Shown here: piece after piece, positions 42,095 through 63,681 of the stretch
Layout of the letters: each line of letters begins with the position of its first letter
Position numbering within the stretch: position 1 is the stretch's first letter
NCBI GenBank assembly: GCA_964416505.1
Contig: CAYQEJ010000004.1
Coordinates: 59,331 to 123,330, forward strand
Direction of reading: 5' to 3'
Length of the DNA stretch: 64,000 bases
Origin: an uncultured Gammaproteobacteria bacterium
GTDB lineage: Bacteria > Patescibacteriota > Microgenomatia > Levybacterales > UBA12049
The notes under the pieces: generated by a model
What the model saw: the letters and a program-made list of their open reading frames with translations, nothing else
The model's database searches: none
Told to the model about the DNA's origin: nothing
Made by a program: the position numbers and the translations under genes

Positions 42095-42125
42095 TAGCCT
42101 CGCAAGGCCAGGCCTTGCGAGGCTA
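42095..42125. repeat. GC-rich perfect palindrome TAGCCTCGCAAGGCC-a-GGCCTTGCGAGGCTA, repeat family copy 1. It lies downstream of recX.
   Basis: 15-bp perfect arms. Near-identical copies occur at 62621 and 63651. The GC-rich element stands out against an AT-rich background. Confidence 0.85.
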
Positions 42126-42152
42126 ATGAAATACAATTCTTTAATTAAAAAT

Positions 42153-42626
42153 CTAGGAAAATATTTTTTTAACTATATCATAAGAAAAACCTTTTCTAAG
42201 TAAATAATTCATTACTTTCTCATGTCTTTTTTTAGGCTCCAAAGCTCTATAGAAATCCAATTTCTTTTCAGCTAACTTTTTAGCACTTTCGTAATCTATA
42301 TCTTTATTTTCTCGATCTTCAAGCAACTCGCTTACTAAACTTTGTGAAATCCCCTTCTGACTTAATTCATACCTAATAACCCTAAGGGGCCTGTTTCTAA
42401 ACTGCGTTCTCTGTTTTATCCAAAATTTTGCAAACTCTAGATCATTTATAAATTTGTATTCTTGAAGCTTAGACATAATTGAAAAAATCATCTCATCTGT
42501 TAATCCTGGAGATTTTTTCTGCTTTTCTTTTAGATAATCTAGAACTTCTTTTTCACTACGAGGCCTATATGAGAGGTATCTAAGAGACAGATTGTAATAG
42601 CGGGCAAAAATGATATCCGTGTCCAT
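42153..42626 (-). CDS. recX: Recombination regulator RecX.
   Basis: RecX repeat helices are present (YLSYRPRSEKEVLDYLKEK), and the gene immediately follows recA. Confidence 0.8.
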   Translation of the reverse strand: MDTDIIFARYYNLSLRYLSYRPRSEKEVLDYLKEKQKKSPGLTDEMIFSIMSKLQEYKFINDLEFAKFWIKQRTQFRNRPLRVIRYELSQKGISQSLVSELLEDRENKDIDYESAKKLAEKKLDFYRALEPKKRHEKVMNYLLRKGFSYDIVKKIFS

Positions 42627-43718
42627 TTAAGATTCTTCACTATCAGAATCTTCATCGTTTTCAACTCCCACTTCGACAGGGGTTCCGTCTGATTTATTTT
42701 TCTTCATAATCTCATCTGTAATCTTTTTTGCCAGATTTGGATTTTCTTTCAAATAGTCCTTCGTTGCTTCTTTTCCTTGACCTAACATATCTTCCCCATA
42801 TCTATAAAACGCCCCTGATTTATTAATAATCCCCATCTCAACTCCCACATCTACAATTGCTCCTTCACGAGAAATCCCACCCTGCATAACATCATATTCT
42901 GCAATTCTAAAAGGCGAGGAAACTTTATTTTTTACTATTTTTACTCTATGACGAGATCCAATTACCTTATCTCCATCTTTTAAAGTTTCTATTTTTCTAG
43001 AATCAAGACGTACTGAAGCATAAAATTTAAGCGCTAAACCTCCAGTTGTAGTTTCTGGATTTCCAAACATGACCCCAATTTTTTGCCTTAGCTGATTAGT
43101 AAAAATTACAACTGTTTTAGACTTAGAAATCACTCCGGTAAGCTTTCTTAAAGCTTGAGACATAAGCCTAGCCTGAAGACCTACCATAGCATCTCCCATT
43201 TCTCCTTCTATTTCTGCCCTTGGGACAAGCGCCGCGACTGAATCAATTACTAAGACATCAATTCCCCCGGATCTAATAAGGCTTTCTGCAATTTCCAGTG
43301 CTTGCTCTCCAGTGTCTGGTTGAGAAATTAATAAGTCATCTAACTTCACACCAATTGTTTCTGCCCAAATCGGATCCAGCGCATGCTCTGCATCAATAAA
43401 TGCTGCTACTCCGCCTGTTTTCTGAGCTTCAGCAATCAAAGACAATGCTAAAGTGGTTTTTCCAGAAGCTTCTGGTCCATAGATTTCAATTATTCTACCT
43501 CTTGGAAGCCCACCAACTCCCAGCGCTATGTCCACAGGAAGAATTCCTGTGGGAATTACCTGGATATCTAGCTTCTGAGCTGCTTCCCCCATACGCATGA
43601 TAGAACCTCTACCATACTGCTTTTCAATTTGCTCCATAGCCATCCTAACTGCGTCAAGCTTTGCGGATTGCTCTACTTTTTCAACTGCTGGAAGTGGATT
43701 TTTTGCGGTCCTTGCCAT
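42627..43718 (-). CDS. recA: Recombinase RecA.
   Basis: [19 protein letters not shown] is a RecA Walker A. The L1/L2 loops are present, and there is an acidic C-terminal tail. Confidence 0.95.
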
Positions 43719-43776
43719 GTCAAAATAATAGACTACATTTCAGTAAAATTCAAGAACCGATTTCGTAAGAGATTAG

Positions 43777-43847
43777 TCGGGGTGCCGAGAATCGAACTTG
43801 GACCACACGGCCCCCAGCCGCGCATTCTACCACTAAACTACACCCCG
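43777..43847 (-). tRNA. tRNA-Pro (anticodon GGG).
   Basis: Manual fold: acceptor CGGGGUG/CACCCCG, anticodon stem CGCGG/CCGUG with loop CUGGGGG (U33, G37), T-loop UUCGAUU, discriminator A. No CCA is encoded. Confidence 0.75.
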
Positions 43848-43909
43848 AAATCACAAGTATTTTACCATAAATTTGTTCTTTAGCCTCCTCTCAAGTATAA
43901 TTAACTACC

Positions 43910-44656
43910 ATGAATGATCTTTCTGAAAAAAGAAAAGAAGCTATAAAAAAATATCCCAAACTAGGAGAAGTGTCCGATGAAAATTTTCCTAAACATATTT
44001 TTATAATTCCTGATGGAAACAGAAGGTATGCTTCGAAAAACAATAAACCTGCATTTTGGGGACATGAAAAAGGATTTAAAGTAGCAATTAATTTACTTAG
44101 ATTTTTCAGACCATTTCCGATAAAAACAGTGACACTTTGGGGTTTTTCTTCTGACAATTGGAAAAGAGACACTGGGGAAATTAAGAATCTCATGCGAATC
44201 TTCGGATTCATAATAGACAACTACTTAGATGAAATTAAGGAGTACAACTCCAGATTTGTTCATCTCGGGAGACGCGATAGATTACCAAAAAATCTGCTTA
44301 ATAAGATAGAAAAGGCTGAGAGAGAAACTAAGAATAATACTGGTCAGATTGTCTGTCTGGCGCTGGACTTCGGCGGAGAAGACTCTAACGTAAGAAGCGC
44401 TTTAAAAGCCAGGCAAACAAACTTTGAAATAAATGAAGAAACGATTTGGAAATTAAGAGACACTGAAGGCTTAATAAGATCAGCAGATTTAATCTTTAGA
44501 ACCAGCGAAAAAAGAACATCTGATGTGGGTTTTCTGAACGGAAAACACTCTGTATTGTTTTTTGCAGAAGATAAATTATTCCCTGAAGTAACTGAAGATG
44601 ACCTAGCAGATGCAATTTATTATTATTCACAAACAAAAAGAAACGAAGGAAAATGA
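43910..44656 (+). CDS. uppS: Undecaprenyl (isoprenyl) diphosphate synthase.
   Basis: IPDGNRRYA is a cis-prenyltransferase signature. A second conserved region ...FRTS... is present. Confidence 0.85.
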   Translation: MNDLSEKRKEAIKKYPKLGEVSDENFPKHIFIIPDGNRRYASKNNKPAFWGHEKGFKVAINLLRFFRPFPIKTVTLWGFSSDNWKRDTGEIKNLMRIFGFIIDNYLDEIKEYNSRFVHLGRRDRLPKNLLNKIEKAERETKNNTGQIVCLALDFGGEDSNVRSALKARQTNFEINEETIWKLRDTEGLIRSADLIFRTSEKRTSDVGFLNGKHSVLFFAEDKLFPEVTEDDLADAIYYYSQTKRNEGK

Positions 44657-45195
44657 TGCTTAATTATTACAAACAAAAGCAACTTATTGCTAAAGTTGAC
44701 GAGAAAGGAAATATATTAGGAGAGATTGAAAAATGGGAAGCACATAAAAATGGAATTCTTCATAAAGCTATAACAGTAACAATTTTTTTTAATAATAAAC
44801 TCATAATCCAACATAGGCGACATCCAGCTTTTGACAAAACTTACGACGTAACCTCATCTTCACACCAGCTATTTATAAAAGGAAAGCTCCAAACTAGTAA
44901 AGATACAGCAAGAGATTGTTTAAAAAGAGAATGGAATCTTAACGAAGATCAATATTCTAATTTAAAAAATCTTGGATCAATATACTATAAAGCAAAGGAT
45001 CCCAATAGCGAATTTACAGAACATGAGATTTGTGACGTTTTAACAGTGGAAGTAAATAGTAAACCTGAACCAAACTTAGATTTTTCCTATGACGCTCTCT
45101 TGGTAAGTCTCGAAGAATTAAAAAATAAAGATTCGAGGATTTTTAAAAACCTTGCACCGTGGGTAAAGGTAATGATAGAAGAAGGAAAAATTTAA
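44653..45195 (+). CDS. Nudix-fold protein resembling type 1 isopentenyl-diphosphate isomerase. The catalytic Cys is not evident.
   Basis: EKWEAHKNGILHKAITVTIFFNNKLIIQHRRHPAFDKTYDVTSSSH parallels IDI-1 ...AH..G.LHRAFS..LFN...LLLQRR....W.NTCCSHP. It overlaps uppS by 4 nt. Confidence 0.4.
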   Translation: MMLNYYKQKQLIAKVDEKGNILGEIEKWEAHKNGILHKAITVTIFFNNKLIIQHRRHPAFDKTYDVTSSSHQLFIKGKLQTSKDTARDCLKREWNLNEDQYSNLKNLGSIYYKAKDPNSEFTEHEICDVLTVEVNSKPEPNLDFSYDALLVSLEELKNKDSRIFKNLAPWVKVMIEEGKI

Positions 45196-45665
45196 CGTTT
45201 TGGAGATTGTTTTTGTCTTCTTGCTTTTCCGCCAGTTCCAACTTTTCTTCTCTCCCTAACTCTTTGATCACGAGTTAATAATCCTTTTTTTCGAAGCACT
45301 GGCTTTACTCCCTCATCAATTGCAGCTAAAGCTCTAGAAAGACCTAAAACAAAAGCTCCAAGTTGAGATGCAGTTCCTCCACCGACTACTCTTGCTGTAA
45401 TAGCATACTTATTCAATGCATCTGCTAATTTAAGTGGTTCTTCATATGTAGCTTTTGCTACAACTCCACTAAAATATTCAGAAATATTTCTTCCGTTAAC
45501 AACTAAATCGCCTTTCTTAACTTCGTATTCTTCAAATTTTAGAGCATCTGGAACTTTAGAATAGACTCTAACACGAGCCACTGCTGCTCTTCTTCGTCCT
45601 ACAGCAAACATAAATTCCTTATATTTTTTTGTTCCCCCAACTTGTGTTTTTAATTCTTCTGCCAT
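45192..45665 (-). CDS. rpsI: 30S ribosomal protein S9.
   Basis: GRRRAAVARVRV... and a C-terminal basic tail ending KR are present. Confidence 0.9.
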   Translation of the reverse strand: MAEELKTQVGGTKKYKEFMFAVGRRRAAVARVRVYSKVPDALKFEEYEVKKGDLVVNGRNISEYFSGVVAKATYEEPLKLADALNKYAITARVVGGGTASQLGAFVLGLSRALAAIDEGVKPVLRKKGLLTRDQRVRERRKVGTGGKARRQKQSPKR

Positions 45666-45667
45666 AT

Positions 45668-46090
45668 TTAGTTTGTACCTTTCTTTGTAAATTTATCTGA
45701 AAATGTATGCTCAACTCCACCAAATACCTTAAGTCTTCCTAGCATTTCATCCCTTAATTTGTTTTGAGGAAGCATTCCTTTTACAGCGTGAACTATTATA
45801 TCAGAAGATTTTCTATTTCTAAGCTCTCCAAGCGTTTCTTCTTTAAATCCTCCTGGATATCCAGAATGTCTTCTGTAAACTTTTTTTGTTTCTTTATTTC
45901 CTGTAACTGCAACTTTATCTGAATTTATTACAACTACAAAATCTCCGCAGTCTAAGTTCTTAACAAAGTATGGTTTACCTTTTCCCATTAAAAGTCCTGC
46001 AATTTCAGTTGACGTTCTACCTAGATTTTTACCATCTACATCAATCAAATGCCACACTCTTTTTATTTCTGCTGCTCTTGTTGCTTTCAT
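45668..46090 (-). CDS. rplM: 50S ribosomal protein L13.
   Basis: WHLIDVDGKNLGRTSTEIAGLLMGKGKPYF... Confidence 0.9.
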   Translation of the reverse strand: MKATRAAEIKRVWHLIDVDGKNLGRTSTEIAGLLMGKGKPYFVKNLDCGDFVVVINSDKVAVTGNKETKKVYRRHSGYPGGFKEETLGELRNRKSSDIIVHAVKGMLPQNKLRDEMLGRLKVFGGVEHTFSDKFTKKGTN

Positions 46091-46572
46091 TATTTAGTTT
46101 TCCCTTCTGTTTTCTTTGCTGGTTTCTTAACTGTCTTTACCTTAACTGCTTTAGCTTTTACTTCCTTGGGTTTAGCTTCTTTCTTTGATTCTTTAGCTTC
46201 TACTTTCGGAGCAACTGCTTCGCCCTCCACCCATTCCATTATAACCATCGATGCATTATCATTAAATCTATTTCCCGCTCTTACAATCCTTGTATATCCT
46301 CCAGCTCTATTCTTAAATCTTGGTGCAATATCTGAAATCATCTTATCTAGCTCATGCTTTTTAAGGCTACCTGATAAAAGTCTTCTTGCGTTGATTTCTT
46401 CTTTCTTCGCCTTTGTAACCATTTTTTCTAGATCAGCTCTTATGGATTTTGCTTTTTCCTCTGTTGTACTTATTTTTCCATACATTATCATAGAAGAAAT
46501 AAGACCATTAAATAAGGCTTTTCTTTCATTTGAATCTCTTTTAAATTTTCTACCAAAAACTTGTTTTCTCAT
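46090..46572 (-). CDS. rplQ: 50S ribosomal protein L17, with a Lys/Glu/Ala-rich C-terminal extension.
   Basis: MRKQVFGRKFKRDSNERKALFNGLISSMIMYGKISTTEEKAK; the C-terminal roughly 45 aa are highly basic. Confidence 0.9.
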   Translation of the reverse strand: MRKQVFGRKFKRDSNERKALFNGLISSMIMYGKISTTEEKAKSIRADLEKMVTKAKKEEINARRLLSGSLKKHELDKMISDIAPRFKNRAGGYTRIVRAGNRFNDNASMVIMEWVEGEAVAPKVEAKESKKEAKPKEVKAKAVKVKTVKKPAKKTEGKTK

Positions 46573-46580
46573 AATCTAAA

Positions 46581-46678
46581 AAATCCGAAGCTCGAAATCA
46601 GAAATACGAAACAATTTTCAAAACTTTAATCTTTCAAAATTTTTTTGTTTCGAGTTTCGAAATTCGAATTTCGGATTT
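46581..46678. repeat. Long imperfect inverted repeat (about 32-nt arms) in the rpoA-rplQ spacer.
   Basis: The arm aaatccgaagctcgaaatcagaaatacgaaac matches the reverse complement of gtttcgagtttcgaaattcgaatttcggattt at about 75% identity. Confidence 0.5.
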
Positions 46679-46681
46679 ATA

Positions 46682-47605
46682 TTAGGCAGACAGCTCTATC
46701 CCTTTTTCTTTAAGCTTATCTTCAATTATAGAGATAGATTTTCCTCCCATATTTCTCATAGAAATAAGGTCTTTTCTAGGAGCTTCTACTAGCTGTCCAA
46801 TTGTTTCAATTCCGCCATTCCTTAGAGAATTATAAATTCTGGTTGGAAGATCCAATTCATCTATTGTTAATTTAAGTGTAGTATCTGGGATATCAGATCT
46901 AGATGAATCTGACTCAGAAACTACTTCTGTTTTTGGATCAAATATTTGATGGAAGTATGAATTAAGATTTCTAGCTGCATAATCAAGAGCTTCTTTTGGA
47001 GATACTACTCCATTTGTCCAAATATGAAGCGTAAGTTTATCTAAATTAGTTTGTCTTCCAACACGAGTTGCTGAAACTGTATAATTAACTCTTTTTACTG
47101 GTGTAAAAATAGCATCAGTTGGAATCACTCCAAGAGATGAGCTTCTTCTTTCTTCGGAAAGAGAATAACTAAATCCCCTCTCAATAGTCATTTCAAGATC
47201 TAATTTTCCTTTCTTATCTGCAAGTGTTCCTATGTAATGATCTGGATTTGCAATCTCTACATCTTCAGGGAGATCTAAATCCTTTGCGGTAATTTCTTTT
47301 GGACCTTTTACTGATAACTTAACTACGCTTTGATCTTTTGAATTTAGAAGTTTAAAGTTAAGCCCTTTTATATTTAATAAAAGGTCAATAACATTTTCCT
47401 TAACCCCAGGAATAGTAGAGAATCTATGCTTTGCTCCTCCGATCTTAACTGAAGTTACTGCAACTCCGGGCATAGAGATTAGAAGAACGCGTCTAAGAGC
47501 TGTTCCCAATGTATGTCCGTAACCTGGCTCTAAAGGTTCTATTACGAACTCTCCGTAGTCAGCTGTCAACTTTTCTTCTTTAATTTTAAAGGTTGGTTCT
47601 GTCAT
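46682..47605 (-). CDS. rpoA: DNA-directed RNA polymerase alpha subunit. The C-terminal domain is short.
   Basis: The N-terminal domain has ...EPLEPGYGHTLGTALRRVLL.... A C-terminal helix-hairpin-helix (alpha-CTD) is present. Confidence 0.9.
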   Translation of the reverse strand: MTEPTFKIKEEKLTADYGEFVIEPLEPGYGHTLGTALRRVLLISMPGVAVTSVKIGGAKHRFSTIPGVKENVIDLLLNIKGLNFKLLNSKDQSVVKLSVKGPKEITAKDLDLPEDVEIANPDHYIGTLADKKGKLDLEMTIERGFSYSLSEERRSSSLGVIPTDAIFTPVKRVNYTVSATRVGRQTNLDKLTLHIWTNGVVSPKEALDYAARNLNSYFHQIFDPKTEVVSESDSSRSDIPDTTLKLTIDELDLPTRIYNSLRNGGIETIGQLVEAPRKDLISMRNMGGKSISIIEDKLKEKGIELSA

Positions 47606-47622
47606 AAAGAATTATTTTACCA

Positions 47623-48225
47623 TTATCTTGAATAATATTCAATAATCAACTGTGTATTGAAAGGGACCTCTAGATCGTCTTTTTTTGGCGCTTTTAAAAG
47701 TTTTCCTACGCTTCCTTTACGCTCAACAAATGCAACCAAATCCTGTCTTTCTTCCATAGCCTGTAATATTAATGGATTGGCTTGTGATTTTTCCCTTAGC
47801 GAAATAACATCGTCAACTTTAACCTGATATGAAGGAATGTTTACTCTTTTATCGTTTACTAAAACATGACCATGAGAAACTAATTGTCTTGCTCCAGCAC
47901 GTGATCTAGAAAATCCAAGTCTATATACGATGTTATCCAGCCTAGTTTCTAAAAGAGAAACCAAAAGCTCGCCCGTTTCATCTGTTTGATTTTCTGCATA
48001 TTTAAAAAGCTTTTTAAATTGCTTTTCCATAATGCCATACATTGCTTTTGCTTTTTGTTTTTCTCTTAACTGTTCTCCGTATTCAGAAAGTCTCTTTTTT
48101 CTTTTTCTTGCATGCTGTCCTGGTGGGATATTTAATCTTCTGGATAAGGTATTTGATGTCTTATCTAAAAGATTTATTCCTTCGCGTCTAGATAATTTAT
48201 GTTTTGGTCCTGTATATCTTGCCAT
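47623..48225 (-). CDS. rpsD: 30S ribosomal protein S4.
   Basis: MARYTGPKHKLSRREG... and an S4 domain are present. Confidence 0.95.
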   Translation of the reverse strand: MARYTGPKHKLSRREGINLLDKTSNTLSRRLNIPPGQHARKRKKRLSEYGEQLREKQKAKAMYGIMEKQFKKLFKYAENQTDETGELLVSLLETRLDNIVYRLGFSRSRAGARQLVSHGHVLVNDKRVNIPSYQVKVDDVISLREKSQANPLILQAMEERQDLVAFVERKGSVGKLLKAPKKDDLEVPFNTQLIIEYYSR

Positions 48226-48227
48226 AA

Positions 48228-48626
48228 TTAAATTCTTCTTTTCTTACTTGCTCTTGGTCCATTATGTGGAATTGGTGTCGTATCTGCGATTTGAATAATT
48301 GAAAGACCCGCACCTTTAATTGCTCGAAGCGCTGAATCTCTTCCCGCGCCTGGTCCTTTAATATAAACTTCTACGCTTTTTAGTCCCCCTGCTATAGCTT
48401 TTTTTGCAACTGATTCAACAGCTGTACTAGCTGCAAAAGGAGTAGATTTTCTGGTTCCTTTAAATCCGCTTGCTCCAGCCGAAGACCATCCGATCGTATC
48501 GCCTTTATTATTTGTGAAAGTTACTAGCGTATTATTAAATGTTGCAGTTATATAAACCTTACCGTTTTCAGTAATTCTATTAACTTTTTTCTTTGTTGTT
48601 ACTTTTTTTGTTGCTTCTTTTGCCAT
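48228..48626 (-). CDS. rpsK: 30S ribosomal protein S11.
   Basis: ...[17 protein letters not shown]...[13 protein letters not shown]... Confidence 0.95.
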
Positions 48627-48631
48627 ATTTA

Positions 48632-49024
48632 TTATTCAGATAATCCCATTTTTACTGCTACTTCTTTTTTAATTGCTCCGATTGTTACTCTCTTTCCTCT
48701 TTTTGTTCTTGCATTTGATCTTGTTCTTTGTCCTCTGGATGGTAGATTTCTAGCATGCCTCATTCCTCTGTAGGCTCCAATATCTCTTAATCTCCTAATA
48801 TTTGCATTAACTTCAGTTCTTAAATCTCCTTCAGTTTTATATGTCTCAAGAGCCTGCTGAATCATTTTTTGCTCTTCTTCTGTTAATGCTTTAACTCTTT
48901 TTGATCCATCAACTTTAGCTTTTTCAAGAATTTCATAAACATTTTTTCTTCCAACCCCATAAATATAGCCTAATGCTATTTCTAATTTCTTTTCATCTGG
49001 TATGTTTACTCCTGAAATTCTCAT
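48632..49024 (-). CDS. rpsM: 30S ribosomal protein S13.
   Basis: [25 protein letters not shown]... Confidence 0.95.
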
Positions 49025-49027
49025 AAT

Positions 49028-49141
49028 TTAACCTTGTCTTTGCTTATGTCTAGGATTATCACAGATAACCCTTACGACTCCACGTCTTTTAATAACTTTA
49101 CATTTTGAACATCTTGGACCAATACTTGCTTGAACTTTCAT
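49028..49141 (-). CDS. rpmJ: 50S ribosomal protein L36. It is not in the ORF track and was found by manual translation.
   Basis: The minus strand translates to [37 protein letters not shown], a perfect match to the L36 pattern (C..C...C..H zinc ribbon). It lies between infA and rpsM. Confidence 0.9.
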
Positions 49142-49142
49142 A

Positions 49143-49361
49143 TTACTTTAACCTAAAGGTTATCCTTCCTTTTGATTCATCATATGGCGTCATCTCTACT
49201 CTCACCCTGTCTCCAGGAAGAATTTTTATAAAATGCATCCGCATTTTTCCAGACAAATGACAAATGATTATTTTGCCATCCGGAAGCTCAACTCTAAATA
49301 ATGTATTAGGCAGAGATTCCAAAACTTTTCCTTCAACTTCAAATGACCCCTGATGCGCCAT
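49143..49361 (-). CDS. infA: Translation initiation factor IF-1.
   Basis: ...[52 protein letters not shown]... Confidence 0.95.
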
Positions 49362-53154: not shown

Positions 53155-53607
53155 TTATTTCTTTGGATTAAGCTCTAATTTTCCACCTGCTTTTTCAATT
53201 TTCTTTAGAGCGCTATTTGAAACTGGAATTCTAAATATTAAGCTTTCCTTAATCTCTCCATCTCCTAGTATTTTAACACCAAATTCTTTTGCGTCGTTTG
53301 CTTTAACAATTCCCCTCTTAACAAGCGATTCGACATCTACTACATCATTCTTTTTAAAATCCACTAAATATTTTAAATTAACAATTAATGGAACATTTCT
53401 AAAACTTTTATTTCTACCTTTACCACGCCTAAATGGAAGTCTTTTAATTAATGGTAGAGCTCCTCCTTCGAAATACAAAGGAACTTTACCTCTAGCTTTT
53501 TGACCCTTCGTTCCTCTTCCTCCTGTTTTAACTTTTCCTGATCCATGACCTTGACCTAGTCTTTTTTTAGATTTTGATTTTATTTTTACTAACTTATTAA
53601 GACTCAT
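53155..53607 (-). CDS. rplO: 50S ribosomal protein L15.
   Basis: ...GQGHGSGKVKTGGRGTKGQKARG... Confidence 0.9.
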   Translation of the reverse strand: MSLNKLVKIKSKSKKRLGQGHGSGKVKTGGRGTKGQKARGKVPLYFEGGALPLIKRLPFRRGKGRNKSFRNVPLIVNLKYLVDFKKNDVVDVESLVKRGIVKANDAKEFGVKILGDGEIKESLIFRIPVSNSALKKIEKAGGKLELNPKK

Positions 53608-54107
53608 TATTTAGTTTTCCTTTCTTCTTCCCTCTTATATCTTTGAGCCAAAAGTCTCAATGCTTCAATCGTTGCATAAACATTACTTGCTTGATTTTTC
53701 GTACCAAGAACTTTAGAAGAGATATTGTGAATTCCAGCAGCTGTCACAACACTTCTAACTGCTCCACCAGCGATTACACCTGATCCCGGAGGTGCTGGCT
53801 TAATTAAAACCTTTGCTGCACCTAATTTTATATAAAATTCAAAAGGAATCGTACCATTTATGATTGGAACTTCAACTAAATTTTTCTTTGCAGTTAGAAC
53901 TCCTTTTCTAATCGCCGCAGAAACATCAGGCGCTTTTCCAAGACCAACCCCTACTTTTCCTTTTCCATCTCCCACAACTGCGAGAGCAGAAAAACCTATC
54001 TTATTTCCACCTTTTGTTTTTTTAGAAACACGGCTTACCTGAACAATTTTTTCTTCAAAATCATCCTGTCTTCGGTCTATTTGATTCGTAAATCTTGCGT
54101 CAGCCAT
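53607..54107 (-). CDS. rpsE: 30S ribosomal protein S5.
   Basis: ...IVQVSRVSKKTKGGNKIGFSALAVVGDGKGKVG... Confidence 0.95.
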   Translation of the reverse strand: MADARFTNQIDRRQDDFEEKIVQVSRVSKKTKGGNKIGFSALAVVGDGKGKVGVGLGKAPDVSAAIRKGVLTAKKNLVEVPIINGTIPFEFYIKLGAAKVLIKPAPPGSGVIAGGAVRSVVTAAGIHNISSKVLGTKNQASNVYATIEALRLLAQRYKREEERKTK

Positions 54108-55416: not shown

Positions 55417-55418
55417 AT

Positions 55419-55604: not shown

Positions 55605-55607
55605 ATA

Positions 55608-56147: not shown

Positions 56148-56149
56148 AA

Positions 56150-56455: not shown

Positions 56456-56456
56456 A

Positions 56457-56831
56457 TTATAACACCTCAACAGCCATACTTGAAATTTTCATAAATCCTT
56501 TATCTCTAATTTCTCTTGCGACTGGTCCAAAAATACGAGTCCCAACTGGATTCTTATCTGTTTTATTATCGATTACTACTGCTGCATTATCAGAGAATCT
56601 AATAAATGATCCGTCTGCTCTTCTGAATTCTTTTCTTGATCTCACAAGCACTGCTTCAACCATTTCACTTTCTTTTACAGTTCCAGTAGGAGATGCTTCT
56701 TTTACAACGCACTTAATTACATCTCCAATATAACCAAATCTTCTCTTGGATCCATTTCTTGCTTGGATAACTAGTAAAATTTTTGCTCCACTATTATCTG
56801 CGACTCTTAAAAGACTTCTATGCTGTACCAT
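56457..56831 (-). CDS. rplN: 50S ribosomal protein L14.
   Basis: [17 protein letters not shown]... Confidence 0.95.
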
Positions 56832-57163
56832 TATTTGATTGCCTTTGAAGGACTTCCTTTCTTAGATTTTACTGATTTCTTAACTTCTTTTACTTCTTTT
56901 GGCTTCTCATCTTTTTGCACTAATTTAGCTTTTTGTCCGACAACTTCCATAATCTTAAAATATTTACTTTTTGAAATTGGTCTAGTTTCTACGATTTTCA
57001 CTTTGTTTCCAATTTCTATTTCGAATCCAGTTGTATCTGCTTTTAATTTTTTACTAAGTCTTATTAATTTTTTATACAATGGATGTGGAGTTCTTCTGGT
57101 AATTTCCACTACCGCTGTATTATTTTTATCTTTTGACACTACTAATCCTTCAAAAATTTTCAT
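56831..57163 (-). CDS. rpsQ: 30S ribosomal protein S17, with a Lys-rich C-terminal tail.
   Basis: ...[27 protein letters not shown]... Confidence 0.9.
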
Positions 57164-57164
57164 A

Positions 57165-57395
57165 TTACTTTGCTACCTCTACTTTCTTTTCTTCTTTGGG
57201 CATTAATTCCTTTTCTCTTAATAGAGTTAAGATTCTAGCAATTTCTTTCCTAGTATTAAAGATACTTCTAGAATTCTTTAATGTATTTTTTTTGCTATCC
57301 ATAATTAATTTAAATAACTCTTCTCTCTTAGAAGATACTAAATCTCTTAATTCTTTTTCACTCTTTACGCTAATTTCATTAACATTTTTTTTCAT
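57165..57395 (-). CDS. rpmC: 50S ribosomal protein L29.
   Basis: ...SVKSEKELRDLVSSKREELFKL... Confidence 0.85.
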   Translation of the reverse strand: MKKNVNEISVKSEKELRDLVSSKREELFKLIMDSKKNTLKNSRSIFNTRKEIARILTLLREKELMPKEEKKVEVAK

Positions 57396-57397
57396 AA

Positions 57398-57802
57398 TTA
57401 TTTATCTACAATTCTTGTTGTAACGCTAAGCTTATGAGCTGCTAACCTAAGAGCTTGATGCGCAACATCTGCTGGAACTCCTGCCATCTCAAAAAGCATT
57501 CTGCCTTTTTTTACTGGCGCTACAAACTCCGCAACATCTCCTTTTCCTCCACCCATTCTTACCTCAGGTGGTTTTTTACTAATTGGCTTATCTGGAAAAA
57601 TTCTTATCCAAACACGTCCACCACGCTGTGTATAGTGAGTAATTGCTCTTCTTGCTGCCTCTATCTGACGAGCTGAAATCCAACCAGTTTGCTCACTTAC
57701 CAGTCCAAAATCTCCAAAAGAAATTTTCGTTCCAGCATGCGCTACTCCTTTTAAATTTCCCCTAAATTGTTTTCTATATTTTGCTCTTTTAGGTGTTAAC
57801 AT
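57398..57802 (-). CDS. rplP: 50S ribosomal protein L16.
   Basis: MLTPKRAKYRKQFRGNLKG... Confidence 0.95.
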   Translation of the reverse strand: MLTPKRAKYRKQFRGNLKGVAHAGTKISFGDFGLVSEQTGWISARQIEAARRAITHYTQRGGRVWIRIFPDKPISKKPPEVRMGGGKGDVAEFVAPVKKGRMLFEMAGVPADVAHQALRLAAHKLSVTTRIVDK

Positions 57803-58446
57803 TATTCTTCCTTTCTATTGATCCAAACCTTTACCCCAATGTAACCCTTCTTTGTTAAAGATGGTACGCTTGCATAATTTACATGTTCTCTAATTGTAGA
57901 TAATGGCACGGTTCCCTGCTGAAGTTTTTCACGTCTTCCGATTTCTGCTCCACCAATTCTTCCCGATAGAATAACTCTAATTCCAAGCGCACCAGATGCC
58001 ATTGCTCGCTCAACAGCTTGACCCATAACTCTCTTATGCGGCATTCTTCTAGCAAGTTGATCTGAAATATTTTTTGCAACCAAATAAGCATCAAGATTTG
58101 GTTCTTTTACCGGTTCTATTCTAATATCTAATTTTGGAAGATTTTTCTTTCCTTTATTTTTAGAAAGAAGTTCCACTAAAAACTTTTTAAGATCTTCTAG
58201 TCCCGCTCCGCCTCGTCCGATAACCATTCCAGGCTTCGAGACATAAGCTGTAACCTTAATGCTATTTATGCTTCGCTCGATTTCTACGGTTGAAACTCCA
58301 GCTCCTTTTAATCTTTCAATTATAGATTTTCTCAAATGATAATCTTCTAAAAGGGTTTGAGCATAGTTTCTATCATCAAACCATCTGGAATCCCAATTAT
58401 AAATTGGTCCTATTCTAAATAATTTTGGATTTACTTTATGACCCAT
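57802..58446 (-). CDS. rpsC: 30S ribosomal protein S3.
   Basis: MGHKVNPKLFRIG..., KH domain. Confidence 0.95.
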   Translation of the reverse strand: MGHKVNPKLFRIGPIYNWDSRWFDDRNYAQTLLEDYHLRKSIIERLKGAGVSTVEIERSINSIKVTAYVSKPGMVIGRGGAGLEDLKKFLVELLSKNKGKKNLPKLDIRIEPVKEPNLDAYLVAKNISDQLARRMPHKRVMGQAVERAMASGALGIRVILSGRIGGAEIGRREKLQQGTVPLSTIREHVNYASVPSLTKKGYIGVKVWINRKEE

Positions 58447-58447
58447 T

Positions 58448-58792
58448 TTACTTCGATGCCTCCTTTTCCTCTAATACAATTCTTATATTGCTTGTCCTTT
58501 TCTTATATCTATGGATTCTACCTCTGGTAGAAGGCCTAAATCTTTTCAAAGATGTCCCTTCTCCAACATCGATACTTTTTATTTTTAAATTATTTTTGTC
58601 TAATTTTGAGTTATTTACAGCATTAGCTACAGCTGCATTGAGCGCCTTTCCTAAATCAGTTGCTCCTCTTTTTTCAATAACTGTTAAAGCATCCAACGCT
58701 TCAGGAATACTCAAATTCCTTATAGCATCTGCTACTATCCTTACTTTTCTCGTACTTGTTCTAACTTCATTAAATCTTGTTATAGTTTGCAT
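58448..58792 (-). CDS. rplV: 50S ribosomal protein L22.
   Basis: ...RTSTRKVRIVADAIRNLSIPEAL... Confidence 0.9.
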   Translation of the reverse strand: MQTITRFNEVRTSTRKVRIVADAIRNLSIPEALDALTVIEKRGATDLGKALNAAVANAVNNSKLDKNNLKIKSIDVGEGTSLKRFRPSTRGRIHRYKKRTSNIRIVLEEKEASK

Positions 58793-58801
58793 ATATTCTC
58801 C

Positions 58802-59086
58802 TTATGTCTTTGAAATTTCTCTAGCTACAATTCTTCCATGTGATCTAAATGTTCTAGTTGGAGAGAATTCTCCGAGACGATGTCCTACCATTCCCTCAAC
58901 AACATATACATTTATGAAATTCTTTCCATTGTGCACCGCGAAATTATGTCCCACAAACTCAGGTGGAATTTGACATGCCCTTGCCCATGTTTTTATAGCC
59001 GCTTTATCACCGGTTTGCTTCTGCATGTTTACTTTTTTTAATAATTTTGCGTCCACGAATGGACCCTTTTTACTACTCCTTGCCAT
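58802..59086 (-). CDS. rpsS: 30S ribosomal protein S19.
   Basis: [12 protein letters not shown]...[12 protein letters not shown]... Confidence 0.95.
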
Positions 59087-59088
59087 AT

Positions 59089-59826
59089 TTACTTAGTACC
59101 CCTTTTTTTTAATATAAATTTATTTGAATACTTTTTCGGATTTCTGGTTTTCCCAAATGCAGGACGACCCGCATATGTCTTTGGACGTTTTAGACCGATT
59201 CCTGAGCGTCCTTCTCCTCCTCCATGAGCATGTGATCTTGGATTCTGAGCTACTCCTCTTACAGTTGGCCTAATACCCATGTGCCTTCTTCTTCCAGCTT
59301 TTCCAAAAAACTCATTTTTCCAGTCAATGTTTGAAAGCACCCCGACAGTTGCCATACAAGCTCCAAGAACTCTTCTAACTTCTCCCGAAGGAAGTTTCAC
59401 ATGAACATAATTTCCTTCTCTTGCTTGAACTACTGCTCCAACTCCCGCACCTCTCGCAAGCTGTCCTCCTCTACCGGGTGTTAGCTCAACATTATGAACT
59501 ACTGTTCCAACTGGAATACTTGATAAAGGAAGGGAATTTCCTACTTTAGAAGAAACATCCTTTCCCGAGCTAATTTTATCGTTAACTTTTAGATCAAGAG
59601 GAGCAATTATATATCTTTTTTCTCCATCTGCATAGTGAACGAGCGCAATATCTGCAGTTCTGTTTGGATCATACTCGATAGAGACTACGCGACCAACTGT
59701 TCCAGATTTATCTCTTTTGAAATCTATTTTTCTAAGAAATCTTTTATGTTCTCCACCCTGATGTCTAACAACTACTTTTCCATTGCTTCTTCCTGCATTT
59801 TTCTTTCTAATTACTTTTAATTTCAT
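59089..59826 (-). CDS. rplB: 50S ribosomal protein L2. It appears about 30 aa shorter at the N-terminus than typical bacterial L2.
   Basis: ...[20 protein letters not shown]...[13 protein letters not shown]...GHGGGEGR... Confidence 0.9.
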
Positions 59827-59828
59827 AT

Positions 59829-60119
59829 TTAACTTTCTCCTCCTAATTCAAATAACCCAATTTTTTCTCCTTTTTTAAGAGTTACGATTGCTTTTTTCCA
59901 AGCAGTAAGAGATTTTTCATTTCTTCTTGCACCAACTCTAATTGATTTTCCTTTTAAAATATTTGTTGTAATTTTAGTCACATTTACACTAAATCTTTTT
60001 TCAATTTCTTTTTTGATTTCATCTTTATTAGCAGTTTTTAAAACTTTAAATGTAAATTTCCCATTACCTGCATCCAGCATAGATTTTTCTGTAATTAAAG
60101 CTTGAATTATTGCACTCAT
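59829..60119 (-). CDS. rplW: 50S ribosomal protein L23.
   Basis: ...[19 protein letters not shown]... Confidence 0.85.
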
Positions 60120-60907
60120 TATTTAGCACTCCTTTTTACTCCGCCAAGCGGAGCTAAAACTTCAACTGATTCTTTCATAAAAAGTATATTTTTATTTTTC
60201 AAAACCTCATAAGTATTTAAAAGTTTTGCATTCATAACTTCTACGTTTTTTATATTCCTTGCAGCTCTATAAACATTTGGTAATTCTTTTGGATTTGCAG
60301 AAATTACGAGCAAAACTCTATTCTTTGACTTTACATCTTCAGTTACTTTTACAATTAATTGATTCATGTTTTTTGTTTTTGCTTCTATCTTATCTAAACC
60401 CGAAAGAACAGTAATAGATCCTTCTTTTGCTTTTAGAGAAAGAGCGGATAAAAGAGCTGCTTTTTTCATTTTCTGAGGCATAGAAAGAGAATAATCTCTT
60501 AATCTTGGTCCATGAGCAACTCCTCCCTTTACAAAAATCGGAGCTCTCTTTCCTCCATGTCTTGCTCCACCTGTTCCTTTTTGTCTATAAATTTTCTTAG
60601 TTGATCCTATTACCTCTCCTCTTGTTAAGGTCTTAGCAGATCCTATTCTCTGATTTGCTAGATAAACCCTAACAGCTTGAGCCATGAGAGCATCATTTAT
60701 TTTTCCACCAAATACTTCTTTAGGAAGTGAAAATGTTCCATTTTTAGCACCTTTTACATCAAACATTGGGGCGTTCAAACCAGACACTTTTACTTCTGCT
60801 TCTACTTTTTCTGTTTTCGTAACTTTTGATACAGCAACCTTTTTAGCTGCTGCCTTTTTTACGGGTGTTTTTACTTCTTTAATTGTTTTTGTTTTACTTG
60901 TCGCCAT
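60119..60907 (-). CDS. rplD: 50S ribosomal protein L4 with a Lys/Ala-rich N-terminal extension.
   Basis: ...VSGLNAPMFDVKGAKNG...LANQRIGSAKTLTRGEV... An extra basic N-terminus of about 40-50 aa is present. Confidence 0.9.
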   Translation of the reverse strand: MATSKTKTIKEVKTPVKKAAAKKVAVSKVTKTEKVEAEVKVSGLNAPMFDVKGAKNGTFSLPKEVFGGKINDALMAQAVRVYLANQRIGSAKTLTRGEVIGSTKKIYRQKGTGGARHGGKRAPIFVKGGVAHGPRLRDYSLSMPQKMKKAALLSALSLKAKEGSITVLSGLDKIEAKTKNMNQLIVKVTEDVKSKNRVLLVISANPKELPNVYRAARNIKNVEVMNAKLLNTYEVLKNKNILFMKESVEVLAPLGGVKRSAK

Positions 60908-61775
60908 CTTTTACTTCCTCCTTGTTTTCTTGATTTTCCGCTTGCTCCTCTGCTTCCGTAGATGAAGTTACTTCTTCTGCTGGAGCTACATCTTGTGCAG
61001 AGTTTTCCTCAGCTGGTTTTTCAGCTTCTAATTTTGCTGCTTCTTCTGCAGCCACTCTATCAGCTTCTTCCTGTGCTGCTTTTGCAGCTGCTTCCTCAGC
61101 TGCTACCACTTCAGGATCCCTGAAAAGAGGAACAAATTTTTTATCTTCCCCCGCTTTTTCTATAAAAATCATTCCATTAATGATCCCTGGAACAAGACCT
61201 TTAATTACTAAAACGCCGTCATTTGTAATGTCTACAATTCTCAGATTTTTAACTGTAACTGTGTCATTTCCCATTCTCCCTGCCATTCTTTTTCCTTTAT
61301 AAACTCTTCCTGGAGTTGTTCCCTGACCAATTGAACCAGGAGCTCTCCATCTATCTGACTGACCATGAGTTTTTGGTCCTCCACTAAATCCATGCCTCTT
61401 CATTCCTCCTTGAAATCCTTTTCCTTTAGAAATTCCTGTTATATTTACCAAATCTCCAGGCTGAAAAACTTCTGAAGGATTCAAAGTTACACCTAATTCT
61501 GGAAGCACTTCGTCTTCATCTTTGATTCTTACTTCTCTTAAAAATTTAGGAGCTTTTTCTAAATTAGCTCCTTTTTTTGCGTGTCCTATTTCTGCTCTAC
61601 TAGCCTTTTTCTTAGCGCTAAATCCAAGCTGCACAGCTTGGTAATGATCTTTTTCGTTAGTTTTATGAGACACTACAACATTTCCGTTAACATCCACGAG
61701 AGTAACCGGAATTCTCATTCCGTTTTCTAAAAATCTTTGACTCTGTACTTTCTTGATACCTATTAGAGACTGCAT
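60894..61775 (-). CDS. rplC: 50S ribosomal protein L3 with an Ala/Glu-rich acidic C-terminal extension. The start is taken at MQSLIGIKK.
   Basis: ...LIGIKKVQSQRF...GKGFQGGMKRHGF.... About 85 C-terminal residues are low-complexity (AAEEAAAKAAQEEADRVAAEEAAKLEAEK...). Confidence 0.9.
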   Translation of the reverse strand: MQSLIGIKKVQSQRFLENGMRIPVTLVDVNGNVVVSHKTNEKDHYQAVQLGFSAKKKASRAEIGHAKKGANLEKAPKFLREVRIKDEDEVLPELGVTLNPSEVFQPGDLVNITGISKGKGFQGGMKRHGFSGGPKTHGQSDRWRAPGSIGQGTTPGRVYKGKRMAGRMGNDTVTVKNLRIVDITNDGVLVIKGLVPGIINGMIFIEKAGEDKKFVPLFRDPEVVAAEEAAAKAAQEEADRVAAEEAAKLEAEKPAEENSAQDVAPAEEVTSSTEAEEQAENQENKEEVKDGDK

Positions 61776-61974
61776 ATAGATAAAATTTACAAACAAAAAA
61801 GCGACCACATAGTGTCGCTCAATTCCCAAGTAGAAATTAAACTCAAACAGAAACTATGTAGCTATCACCTCCTGTGTTTGTAAAGCCATTTTGTACATGT
61901 AATTATAGCTAAGCGCGTGCGTAAATGCAAGGGGAAGGGAAGAATTTAATAAGAAAAGATCCCCAAACAAACCT

Positions 61975-62541
61975 TTATGTTCTCTTTTTAATTGGAGCAC
62001 TTGCTGTGTAAGTTTTTGGATTACGCACGTAGCTACCTACTTCATATCCTAATTCTTCAGCAAGCAACCTATATGCAGATAGTTTTTCTCGATCAGTCTC
62101 AGAAATTCCTTTCGGATCAGTAAAACTACCTATTGATCCCTTTTCTGCAGCTGAATGTATGTTTTCTATCATCACTTCCCTCATGCCTGGAGGCTGCCTA
62201 TCCCAAAATCTTTGCGCATACATCTCATCCGGCTTCACTTGTTTTCCTCCTACTACTTCAACTTTTCCATCTTTACCTTTTCTTAACTGTGGTGGATGAT
62301 GCGGCTCATACATTTTCCCATCCATTACAAATGGCTTAGGAATATATGGTCCACCCGGAAGACGCCTTGCTAATGAATTAAGAGCCTGGTTAATTCCTAA
62401 GGGCCCCGTATTCAAATTAGGCTCAATTTGTCGCACAAGACCCGCATTTCCTGGATGAGGAATACTAGGAGACTTGGAAGGACTAGTAGATCCAACTGGT
62501 TCTACTGTTTTAATCGGTTCAACATCTGCCATACATACCAA
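61975..62541 (-). CDS. Hypothetical Pro-rich protein inserted between rpsJ and rplC.
   Basis: 188-aa ORF with a GC content that looks above the local average. No family recognised. Confidence 0.4.
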   Translation of the reverse strand: MVCMADVEPIKTVEPVGSTSPSKSPSIPHPGNAGLVRQIEPNLNTGPLGINQALNSLARRLPGGPYIPKPFVMDGKMYEPHHPPQLRKGKDGKVEVVGGKQVKPDEMYAQRFWDRQPPGMREVMIENIHSAAEKGSIGSFTDPKGISETDREKLSAYRLLAEELGYEVGSYVRNPKTYTASAPIKKRT

Positions 62542-62620
62542 TATAACATTTATAAACGTTATGTAAATATCTTAAGCTCGCTTAAAAATAAAATCACTTC
62601 TTTCCCGATTGATTATATTC

Positions 62621-62651
62621 TAGCCTCGCAAGGCCTGGCCTTGCGAGGCTA
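62621..62651. repeat. GC-rich perfect palindrome, repeat family copy 2 (TAGCCTCGCAAGGCC-t-GGCCTTGCGAGGCTA).
   Basis: Its arms are identical to the copy at 42095. The 3' flank AAGCGCTATAAGATATCTG resembles the flank of copy 3. Confidence 0.85.
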
Positions 62652-62690
62652 AAGCGCTATAAGATATCTGAGAATTAAATTTATCTTGGA

Positions 62691-63239
62691 TTACTTTCTT
62701 CTAATCTTCTGTGCAATTGATTCTCGAACTTTTTTCACTCTATTAACAAAGGGGTCTATCCTTCCTGAAGCAATTAATGCATTAAAAGGAATAAACCACA
62801 CAGGAATTGTTAAGGATGTTGCAATAATACTGTCAACCAAAAGCTGATTATCATGATTATAAACTGCAATGGCATTTATTGGATTCGTTAACTGAAGATA
62901 AACATGATTTCCAGCATGCTCTAGAGCAGAAGACATAACTGGCCTTCCTGTCATAATATTAAAAGTTGTTCCATAGGGACTAGCGCTATATTGTCTTTCT
63001 CTTAAATTTCTCGCTTCTAGAGCAATACTAGCAGCATTCGCTACAAACGATACCCCTATTAATGTAGCTCTTGCTAAATCCGGCGTACCACTTGACAGTA
63101 AATGCGTAGCTGTAGTTAAACCTGCTTCTATTGGAAGTATTGATGGAATTGATGCTGTAAAAATCGCTGAAGTAACAGCAATTCCTTCTGGATTTATTCT
63201 ACCTTTGGCTGATTGATATCTCTCTCTAACGCTTGGCAT
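62691..63239 (-). CDS. Hypothetical protein, possibly membrane-associated, inserted between rpsJ and rplC.
   Basis: 182-aa ORF with hydrophobic stretches. No family recognised. Confidence 0.4.
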   Translation of the reverse strand: MPSVRERYQSAKGRINPEGIAVTSAIFTASIPSILPIEAGLTTATHLLSSGTPDLARATLIGVSFVANAASIALEARNLRERQYSASPYGTTFNIMTGRPVMSSALEHAGNHVYLQLTNPINAIAVYNHDNQLLVDSIIATSLTIPVWFIPFNALIASGRIDPFVNRVKKVRESIAQKIRRK

Positions 63240-63263
63240 ATGCCGGCAATTATAGCAAAGGGG

Positions 63264-63614
63264 CTATTGAATTCCTAAAATTCCTGAACCAATAATTACA
63301 GAGGCAACAGCTATTAATATAGCTACTATTATCAAAAAAAATACCATCCATATACGCTTAGTTCTTCTGTTTAAATCTTTTAAAACAATAGAATCCTGTG
63401 CGTATTGAAAGATTCTATTACATTTTAAACATCTATAAGCAACTACTCTCCTAAGATCTGTGAAATTAGCTTCATTTGTTCCAATAATATAGTTTTTTGT
63501 TCCGGACGGGACATTACCGCTTTTAGCATAACGCTGAATCAAAACTGCTCCGTAAGTACTATCGAGAATAACTCCATTTTCAAAATCTCCACCACAATCA
63601 GGACATTTTTTCAT
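63264..63614 (-). CDS. Small zinc-ribbon protein with a C-terminal TM helix.
   Basis: CPDCGG...CLKCNR forms a CxxC...CxxC ribbon. The C-terminal helix is MVFFLIIVAILIAVASVIIG. Confidence 0.45.
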   Translation of the reverse strand: MKKCPDCGGDFENGVILDSTYGAVLIQRYAKSGNVPSGTKNYIIGTNEANFTDLRRVVAYRCLKCNRIFQYAQDSIVLKDLNRRTKRIWMVFFLIIVAILIAVASVIIGSGILGIQ

Positions 63615-63650
63615 AAACTAATCATTTCAGATATTGCAAGTGAATTCAAT

Positions 63651-63681
63651 CAGCCTCGCAAGGCCAGGCCTTGCGAGACTA
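63651..63681. repeat. GC-rich palindrome, repeat family copy 3. It has one arm mismatch and lies between rpsJ and the inserted genes.
   Basis: CAGCCTCGCAAGGCC-a-GGCCTTGCGAGACTA, with the flank AAGACACTATAAGACTG. Confidence 0.8.

Follow-up and report, generated by a model that had tools for sequence, protein, structure and literature searches.

The 64-kb stretch of DNA analysed here (from the 126-kb contig CAYQEJ010000004.1, hereafter the window) contains three copies of a GC-rich palindrome of 31 nucleotides (nt), TAGCCTCGCAAGGCC-W-GGCCTTGCGAGGCTA, at 42095-42125, 62621-62651, and 63651-63681. These palindromes are probably solo copies of an element family resembling repetitive extragenic palindromes (REPs) in bacteria of the Patescibacteria/Levybacteria type. 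Their partner would be a single-stranded DNA (ssDNA) transposase of the HUH/Y1 class that resembles the REP-associated tyrosine transposases (RAYTs). They are thus most likely the first mobile hairpins of the REP/RAYT type described for a Levybacteria-like lineage of the Candidate Phyla Radiation (CPR). Such systems are considered to be replicators that persist over long times by vertical inheritance, and most of their characterisation comes from Proteobacteria, Cyanobacteria, and Bacteroidetes. In full-text literature searches, no paper connected RAYT, REPIN, or REP with Patescibacteria or the CPR.

A search of the window with the pattern AGCCTCGCAAGGCC-N-GGCCTTGCGAGGCT, allowing up to three mismatches, finds exactly three sites, at 42096-42124 (no mismatch), 62622-62650 (none), and 63652-63680 (one), and the same pattern has no match in 100 dinucleotide-preserving shuffles of the window. 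No other long GC-rich palindromes are present in the 64 kb. Copy 1 (42094..42126, TTAGCCTCGCAAGGCC-A-GGCCTTGCGAGGCTAA) has perfect arms of 16 base pairs (bp) and copy 2 (62621..62651, TAGCCTCGCAAGGCC-T-GGCCTTGCGAGGCTA) perfect arms of 15 bp, with a single central W (A or T) between the arms in both. Copy 3 (63651..63681, CAGCCTCGCAAGGCC-A-GGCCTTGCGAGACTA) keeps a perfect core of 11 bp and has two arm mismatches, one inside the 14-nt arms (GAGACT) and another at the 15th, outermost pair (C for T). No strand is assigned to any of the three. GC content is about 69% in the core and 33.7% in the window. Folded as single strands, the copies reach -12 to -19 kcal/mol, with z-scores of -4.6 to -8.1, and in an Rfam scan of the window, which matched one tRNA, the palindromes are covered by no known RNA family.

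Each copy follows a gene. Copy 1 lies 28 nt past the stop codon of recX and upstream of rny; copy 2 lies 40 nt past the stop of a gene for a protein of 182 amino acids (aa), upstream of a 188-aa open reading frame (ORF) and rplC; and copy 3 lies 96 nt past the rpsJ stop and 37 nt upstream of a 116-aa gene. Copies 2 and 3 share the flank CTATAAGA. An initial sequence-only reading of the window had reported the three positions, the placement after these genes, the similar 3′ flank, and the contrast in GC content, all of which hold. The shared flank turns out to belong to a family-wide module, A-N-N(1-3)-YTATARG, whose instances here are AAGCGCTATAAGA beside copy 2 (62652..62664, + strand) and AGACACTATAAGA beside copy 3 (63682..63694, + strand). 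This module adjoins about 20% of the family's half-sites, other genomes included, with AAGTTATAGGCC at four loci, and its recurrence next to half-sites means that some propagated units are longer than 31 nt. On inspection, the central base (A or T), considered as an orientation marker, showed no correlation with the side on which the flank motif stands.

Several other interpretations of the palindrome were discarded. Each 14-nt arm (GCCT-CGCA-AGGC) might be a mini-REP and the whole a mini-REPIN, but such an arm forms a stem of only 4 bp and the long hairpin dominates the fold. Integron attC sites, CRISPR, and group II introns were rejected, there being no integrase, array, or intron feature. 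An assembly artefact was also set aside, as the palindrome is present in independent assemblies of many projects, with reading frames preserved.

The palindrome recurs in related genomes. An exact scan for its 25-nt core in GTDB, with one genome per species, found 19 loci in five metagenome-assembled genomes (MAGs), on which the whole-genome copy counts rest. Copies of the exact core number 10 in CAZMGC, five in CAZWXQ (over three contigs summing to about 0.98 Mb), five in CAZBFH, and one each in CAYIXE and in JBBTXW, labelled "Patescibacteria"; three further variant copies are found in CAZMGC and two in CAZBFH. A scan with mismatches adds few degenerate copies, nearly all copies being within 0-2 bases of the consensus. 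The JGI/ENA metagenomes supply 10 more loci, in 10 contigs. A count in the genome and its relatives was the check that the sequence-only reading had proposed, and the three window copies prove to be neither unique nor absent from relatives. In the viral contigs of IMG/VR the core has no match, which makes a phage-borne origin unlikely.

Other features of the family come from the contigs themselves. One Logan contig of the window strain (L030, 1286 nt, SRR12487045) ends inside copy 2, and a second one from the same run, of a CAZMGC-like strain (L039, 1910 nt), likewise ends or begins inside the palindrome; such ends indicate that the repeat breaks short-read assemblies. Both strains are present in one sample. 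Partial tandem duplications of one arm stand beside full copies at four places (L012 514-557, L033 10661-10715, L037 10689-10730, and L038 9360-9432), for instance GTTAGCCTCGAT-TAGCCTCGC… and …GCGAAGCTATTTGCGAAGCTA, and may be traces left by slippage or by a nuclease acting at the foot of the hairpin.

Judged from its genes, the host looks like a genome of the Patescibacteria/Levybacteria type. The rpsE gene (S5) is followed directly by rplO (L15) at 53155-54107, with base 53607 shared, and there is no rpmD (L30) gene. Brown et al. 2015 are said to have described the missing L30 as a hallmark of the CPR, and its absence supports assignment to that lineage. Moreover, homologs of the linked window proteins carry the names Candidatus Levybacteria or Patescibacteria in their source records. 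Four of the MAGs (CAZWXQ, CAZMGC, CAZBFH, and CAYIXE) are titled "uncultured Gammaproteobacteria bacterium", a label that gene content and homolog names indicate to be wrong; they clearly belong to the clade of the window.

The palindrome is tied to a particular enzyme by its position. In three MAGs, at one locus in each (L016, L006, and L011), two palindromes tightly bracket a single gene whose product of 219-236 aa matches Pfam Y1_Tnp (PF01797, IS200-like HUH transposase) with E-values of about 1e-11 to 1e-12. Homologous Y1 genes at five more loci, in other CPR genomes (L031, L033, L034, L036, and L037), each have on both sides a version of the hairpin specific to their lineage, so that the Y1 gene is flanked on both sides at eight loci in eight genomes. 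One hairpin lies about 25-50 nt before the start codon, and the other overlaps the stop or comes immediately after it. In metagenomes, more than 7,800 homologs of the family occur, and those with names are Levybacteria or Patescibacteria. The Y1 gene is also found in the same surroundings in different species, between M23 and M50 peptidase genes in L006 and L016 and between genes for a SpaA-like protein and Nramp-MgtE-Lon in L034 and L036. A ComEC gene stands near one Y1 locus, which may be coincidence.

The best NCBIfam family of the Y1 protein is REP_Tyr_transpos, "REP-associated tyrosine transposase" (NF047646; E about 1e-9, 36-38 bits). Its family alignment has as invariant motifs N94-H95-F96-H97, which is the HUH motif, and Y155-I-H-K-Q159. 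A phmmer search of the protein against PDB sequences found nothing, and a profile alignment places the motifs on the HUH, Y132, and Q136 of ISDra2 TnpA as a weak match (E 0.2). The AlphaFold (AF2) model has a pLDDT of 84 and a pTM of 0.81, and with it Foldseek retrieves as its top match 4ER8 (chain A), which is E. coli TnpA_REP in complex with a REP hairpin (E 5.8e-4, probability 1.0), followed by the TnpA proteins of ISDra2 and IS608.

It is possible to regard the Y1 gene and its two hairpins as an ordinary autonomous insertion sequence (IS) of the IS200/IS605 type, and the solo palindromes as its decayed ends or as derivatives similar to PATEs or to MITEs (miniature transposable elements with inverted repeats). 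This would fit the Y-x-x-x-Q motif, which aligns with Y132/Q136 of ISDra2 and is given as the signature of IS200 subclass 1.1 in the survey PMC6006769, and it would also fit the score of the Y1 protein under the curated RAYT cutoff and the low copy numbers. However, the same palindrome stands on both sides of the gene, whereas an IS has distinct left and right ends. The Y1 genes keep orthologous positions across species despite a protein identity of 67-75%, and solo hairpins exceed Y1-bracketing pairs by 3-11 to 1 per genome, with one Y1 pair per MAG. Furthermore, the IS200 profile hidden Markov model (HMM) gives the protein an E-value of about 0.03 and only 14-15 bits against a cutoff of 55, which is worse than the RAYT HMM; there is no tnpB near the Y1 loci; and no viral contig matches. 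An ordinary IS is accordingly considered an unlikely explanation, and a REP-like family with its own Y1 enzyme is preferred.

The sequence of the hairpin changes together with the lineage of the enzyme. The variants that bracket the Y1 genes are, for instance, AGCTTCGCAAGGC-GAG-GCCTTGCGAAGCT in L037, TTCCGCAAGGCG-A-CGCCTTGCGGAA in L034, TAGCTTTGCAGGGG-GAC-GCCTTGCAAAGCTA in L033, and AGCCTTGCAAGGT-GAG-ACCTTGCGAGGC in L031. When 28 hairpins from nine genomes are aligned without gaps, 87% of the cells are paired, compared with at most 49% in controls with slid partners, and compensatory double changes occur at eight of the 15 stem positions. The pairs 7-29 and 8-28 are U·A in 17 hairpins, C·G in the other 11, and unpaired in none. 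The Y1 genes of L034, L036, and L037 themselves contain a third copy, in-frame and right after the catalytic helix, which matches the genome's own variant. Palindromes of the window type are single 31-nt units and not REPIN doublets; doublets of two hairpin types about 45 nt apart are found in L034 and L036 only. At the Y1 gene these have the form CCGCAAGGCG-A-CGCCTTGCGG plus CTTTAAGGCG-T-CGCCTTGAAG (L034 9889-9973 and 10678-10750; L036 9904-9972), and a solo doublet lies elsewhere in L034 (1113-1181). They recall the organisation of BIMEs and REPINs.

Compensatory change of this kind bears on another possibility, namely that a dimeric protein recognises the palindrome in double-stranded form, for example as a signal for DNA uptake, as a nucleoid or partition site, or as a target of restriction-modification. 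The perfect dyad symmetry, with a centre GGCCWGGCC that holds CCWGG and two GGCC, would suit such a site, and CPR bacteria carry competence genes (see the ComEC gene above). Nevertheless, uptake signals number hundreds to thousands per genome and not 5-13, the G·T pairs in the variants fit a single-strand hairpin, and the palindrome has a family of hairpin-binding enzymes linked to it but no candidate binding protein. A dimer site is consequently very improbable, and the covariation is more readily read as that of the hairpin substrate of a RAYT-like enzyme.

Copies are also maintained at orthologous sites. In six orthologous pairs, the 150-nt flanks are 61-86% identical and the palindrome is identical at 30-31 of 31 positions, the sole difference being the central W. 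For example, window copy 1 agrees with the copy that follows recX in CAZMGC (L005) at 31 of 31 positions, between flanks that are 72-80% identical. Near-identity of the palindrome amid diverged flanks requires either selection or continuing homogenisation. The leading TAG of the palindrome repeatedly serves as the stop codon of the upstream gene, as in recX in CAZMGC (L005 1756-1758), a gene in L011 (5445-5447), and the Y1 genes of L031, L033, and L037.

In addition, at least eight coding genes contain in-frame copies, the Y1 gene itself among them. The others encode MurT (L007), a CopA-type ATPase (L008 and L021, which are orthologous), a RarA-like ATPase (L022), ValRS (L024), UvrC (L026), and a glycosyltransferase (L029), and variant copies further occur in the genes for LeuRS and a giant protein (L031). 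Translation runs through the element in just two frames, which yield SLARPGLARL(E/K) or ASQGxALR, and the remaining frame contains the TAG. In MurT, the segment forms an extra loop of 8-10 residues relative to solved MurT structures. The site is occupied by a perfect copy in L007 (a net gain of 18 nt), is empty in the 18 closest orthologs (69-78% identity), and is filled with lineage-typical variants in 21 more distant ones, amounting to 22 filled sites out of 120; one such variant, SFARPGLAKL, is the translation of the hairpin variant of L037 and L038. Gain or loss of a copy is thus visible at this coding site, and comparison of filled and empty MurT DNA reveals no evident target duplication. 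The CopA copy cannot be termed an insertion, given that the length is unchanged relative to the CopA of A. fulgidus. Another insert in the CopA of L008 (about 3900-4020, residues about 464-499) has no relation to the palindrome copy and no equivalent in A. fulgidus CopA; it comprises about 35 aa with many Ser, Arg, and Pro residues (GPVGSSSRPTSSAGQPAGARRDTLRSRHPSSVR).

These coding copies, together with those in other genomic contexts, also bear on whether the palindromes function in RNA or transcription, for instance as bidirectional intrinsic terminators or as hairpins for the stabilisation or processing of mRNA, selected site by site and with neither mobility nor a link to an enzyme. In the window, a stop codon precedes each copy by 28-96 nt, and the hairpins are very stable. 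Moreover, copy 1, between the recX stop at 42153 (recX, 42153-42626, - strand) and the rny start at 41946 (rny, 40690-41946, - strand), passes a scan for a hairpin plus T-tail, its tail on the - strand being rich in T (CTTTGATTTT), and has a promoter-like site after it. By contrast, copies 2 and 3 have no T-tail, and copies in relatives also stand between divergently transcribed genes (L001, L004, L006, L013, and L016) or in-frame within genes. Terminators need no identical 31-mer across loci and species, no Rfam family matches, and the constant bracketing of the Y1 gene would be left unexplained. An RNA element of this sort is therefore quite improbable as a full account. Among the roles that the sequence-only reading had listed, a REP-like or small mobile palindrome agrees with a dispersed repeat that brackets a RAYT-like Y1 gene, and a plain terminator, as a general explanation, does not agree with the T-tail on copy 1 only and the divergent and in-frame copies.

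Copies 1 and 2 each have just downstream, on the coding strand, a promoter-like site that is a consensus match only, an arrangement that would suit palindromes placed at junctions of terminator and promoter. That for rny, after copy 1, is TTGATT-17-TATAAT (42063-42091, - strand), and the one after copy 2 is TTTACA-16-TATATT with TG (62540-62567, - strand). Because the latter overlaps the predicted TTG start of the 188-aa ORF, the true start of this ORF is probably further in.

Several observations weigh against assigning the window palindromes to a REP/RAYT-type system. A tblastn search for the Y1 gene within the 64-kb window found none, and the link between enzyme and palindrome, as far as the window is concerned, comes from identical 31-mers in related genomes; the window's own genome would carry its Y1 gene elsewhere, for which a homolog (P0002, 80% identical, from an NCBI contig of 102 kb) is a candidate only. 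The 36-38 bits of the Y1 protein are below the curated RAYT cutoff of 80 bits, and its YIHKQ is a Y…Q of the IS200 type and not the Y-x-x-x-N-P of RAYTs. The unpaired GTAG/CGTC tag is not present at the foot of the hairpin: the palindrome ends in (T/C)TAG…CTA(A/G) within the stem, and a GTAG reading is obtained in L031 only. In addition, 5-13 copies per genome of about 1 Mb is a low number. Symmetric compensatory change would be expected equally of a double-stranded site bound by a dimer, and the filled and empty MurT sites yield ambiguous boundaries with no clean insertion edges, since both states share TTAG…CTA. In effect, the system behaves like REP/RAYT and departs from it in the HMM cutoff, the Y…NP motif, the unpaired tag, and the high copy number.

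The comparison with known systems is consistent with this mixed picture. As in REP/RAYT systems such as the REP-BIMEs and TnpA_REP (4ER8) of E. coli or the REPIN-RAYT of Pseudomonas, a short GC-rich hairpin is dispersed mainly between genes and is over-represented beyond the flanks of the enzyme gene (5-10 exact 25-mer cores per MAG plus variants). A Y1 HUH gene, apparently single-copy where seen and syntenic in two species pairs, is bracketed by the repeat. Hairpin and enzyme lineage co-vary, copies persist at orthologous sites, and the best HMM and the best solved-fold matches are RAYTs. Unlike those systems, the host here is a CPR/Levybacteria organism, the element is a perfect 31-nt palindrome with a loop of 1-3 nt, there are about 5-13 copies per genome with frequent in-frame copies in coding genes, and the enzyme is of the Y-x-x-x-Q and not the Y-x-x-x-N-P type, below the curated RAYT cutoff. 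REPs are imperfect hairpins of 20-40 nt with a conserved unpaired tetranucleotide, GTAG or CGTC, at the foot (PMC3733652, PMC3479197). As for copy number, the abundance of flanking repeats is about 12-14 in RAYT groups 1 and 4, to which the family here is similar, and 57-140 in the REP-rich groups 2 and 3 (Bertels, PMC5581495).

The survey by Quentin et al. 2018 (PMC6006769) provides further points of reference and, in the parts consulted, contains no mention of CPR genomes. The motifs of the Y1 family (NHFH, [FYC]Q, about 220-240 aa) resemble those it gives for TnpA_Y1 subclass 2.1, or Bertels group 1 (NH[YF]H, FQ, about 238 aa); that subclass, however, is reported there to be without REPs and to have Y[IV]HLNP, whereas REP-like hairpins are always present here and the motif is YIHKQ. 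A REP copy inside tnpA is reported in the same survey as unique to subclass 2.4 (Bertels group 4), to which the in-gene copies of L034, L036, and L037 correspond. With IS200/IS605 elements (IS608 and ISDra2) and PATEs, the system shares the Y1 HUH fold, the Y…Q site, a hairpin-flanked transposase gene, the lack of target-site duplication, of which none is evident at the MurT site, and, by analogy, presumably the ssDNA chemistry. It differs from IS200/IS605 in its identical hairpins on both sides, the lack of tnpB, and no sign of multicopy behaviour or mobility where seen, and from these elements and PATEs alike in having solo 31-nt hairpins in place of two-ended miniature elements. The in-frame copies recall the Rickettsia palindromic elements (RPEs), which are also tolerated in housekeeping genes and add a short peptide in a surface loop, the peptide here being SLARPGLARL or ASQGxALR. 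RPEs, however, are about 100-150 bp long, Rickettsia-specific, and without a known transposase, whereas the present element has 31 nt of unrelated sequence, a CPR host, and a linked Y1 gene. Finally, the palindromes resemble Rho-independent terminators in that a stem rich in GC follows a gene, with a T-rich tail at copy 1, but their sequence is identical across loci and species, two of the three window copies lack the tail, and members of the family lie in promoter regions and ORFs.

A mechanism can be proposed by analogy with characterised enzymes. When single-stranded, for instance at a replication fork, the 31-nt sequence would fold into a 15-bp hairpin, and because the element is a perfect palindrome, both strands would present the same hairpin. 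The Y1 enzyme may bind this hairpin and cut and rejoin ssDNA near its foot, as has been shown biochemically for TnpA_REP of E. coli, with hairpin binding, ssDNA cleavage, and strand transfer (PMC3479197). Catalysis would involve a metal bound by the His-x-His (HUH) motif and Tyr155 as the nucleophile, with a 5′-phosphotyrosine intermediate and subsequent rejoining of the strand. The IS608/ISDra2-type mechanism, reportedly described by Barabas et al. 2008, is another source of this mechanistic analogy. Acting in trans from a gene that is itself bracketed by two hairpins, the enzyme might spread, replace, or homogenise copies with no target duplication. More speculatively, the TAG…CTA foot would set AG opposite CT, the dinucleotides that are guide and cleavage site in E. 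coli. Secondary uses may have been acquired as well: copy 1 is placed so that it could act as a terminator of recA-recX, and copies 2 and 3 would form stable hairpins in transcripts of the S10 region.

Two of the window copies lie in a variable part of this S10 region, which reads, on the - strand, rpsJ, copy 3, the 116-aa gene, the 182-aa gene, copy 2, the 188-aa ORF, and rplC. The rpsJ-rplC junction is normally contiguous and here holds three to four non-ribosomal genes in a set that varies by species, the 182-aa gene alone being shared. The interval spans 61975-63614 in the window (rpsJ from 63778, rplC at 60894-61829), 8488-13231 in CAZMGC (L038), and 4246-9247 in CAZBFH (L040). Between copies 2 and 3, the 116-aa and 182-aa genes (62691..63614, - strand) encode, respectively, a DUF6487/zinc-ribbon protein with a hydrophobic tail and a protein of no family; they are context only, neither being a transposase. 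The homologs of the 182-aa protein are confined to the clade of the window (12 hits). Both CAZMGC and CAZBFH have a homolog of its gene in this interval, with a 529-aa PMT_2 glycosyltransferase among others, and neither interval holds a counterpart of the 116-aa gene or the 188-aa ORF. The CAZBFH interval has no palindrome, and that of CAZMGC has one compensated variant at a different junction. Consequently, the suggestion of the sequence-only reading that two copies had mediated the S10-L3 insertion was abandoned, as the 182-aa gene is found without any palindrome in one genome and with a copy elsewhere in the other. The interval is a gene-turnover hotspot inside the S10 operon that is older than the window palindromes. 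The palindromes mark junctions of differing gene content, and a causal part in the insertion is not demonstrable; as the interval is variable and they stand at such junctions, they may have had a role in its later rearrangements. The L3 protein encoded by rplC (60894-61829) has an Ala/Glu/Lys-rich, low-complexity C-terminal extension of about 90 aa (…AAEEAAAKAAQEEADRVAAEEAAKLEAEKPAEENSAQD…).

A broader and rather doubtful proposal is that a CPR-wide, vertically inherited partnership of Y1 nuclease and hairpin keeps all copies in a genome identical by concerted evolution, including those within essential proteins and the nuclease gene. The peptide of 10-11 aa (SLARPGLARL or ASQGxALR) would then be a recurrent insertion written by the enzyme, and the system would be a host-integrated form of ssDNA processing and not merely selfish DNA. 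If true, such a system might serve replication-linked genome maintenance or the insulation of operons.

A compact version of REP/RAYT in the CPR would extend the phenomenon to a large and poorly understood part of bacterial diversity, in which genetics is impossible and genomes are of about 1 Mb, so that repeats should face strong pressure. The palindromes would also be of practical use as a marker, given that they break assemblies and mark junctions of gene-content change, and they would show, in nature, how short hairpins linked to an enzyme come to be written in-frame into proteins that are essential. The 219-aa Y1 protein and the 31-nt hairpin would constitute, as predicted from sequence, a small enzyme-substrate pair. 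Finally, the combination of an IS200-type active site with a RAYT-type genomic behaviour bears on the domestication of transposases.

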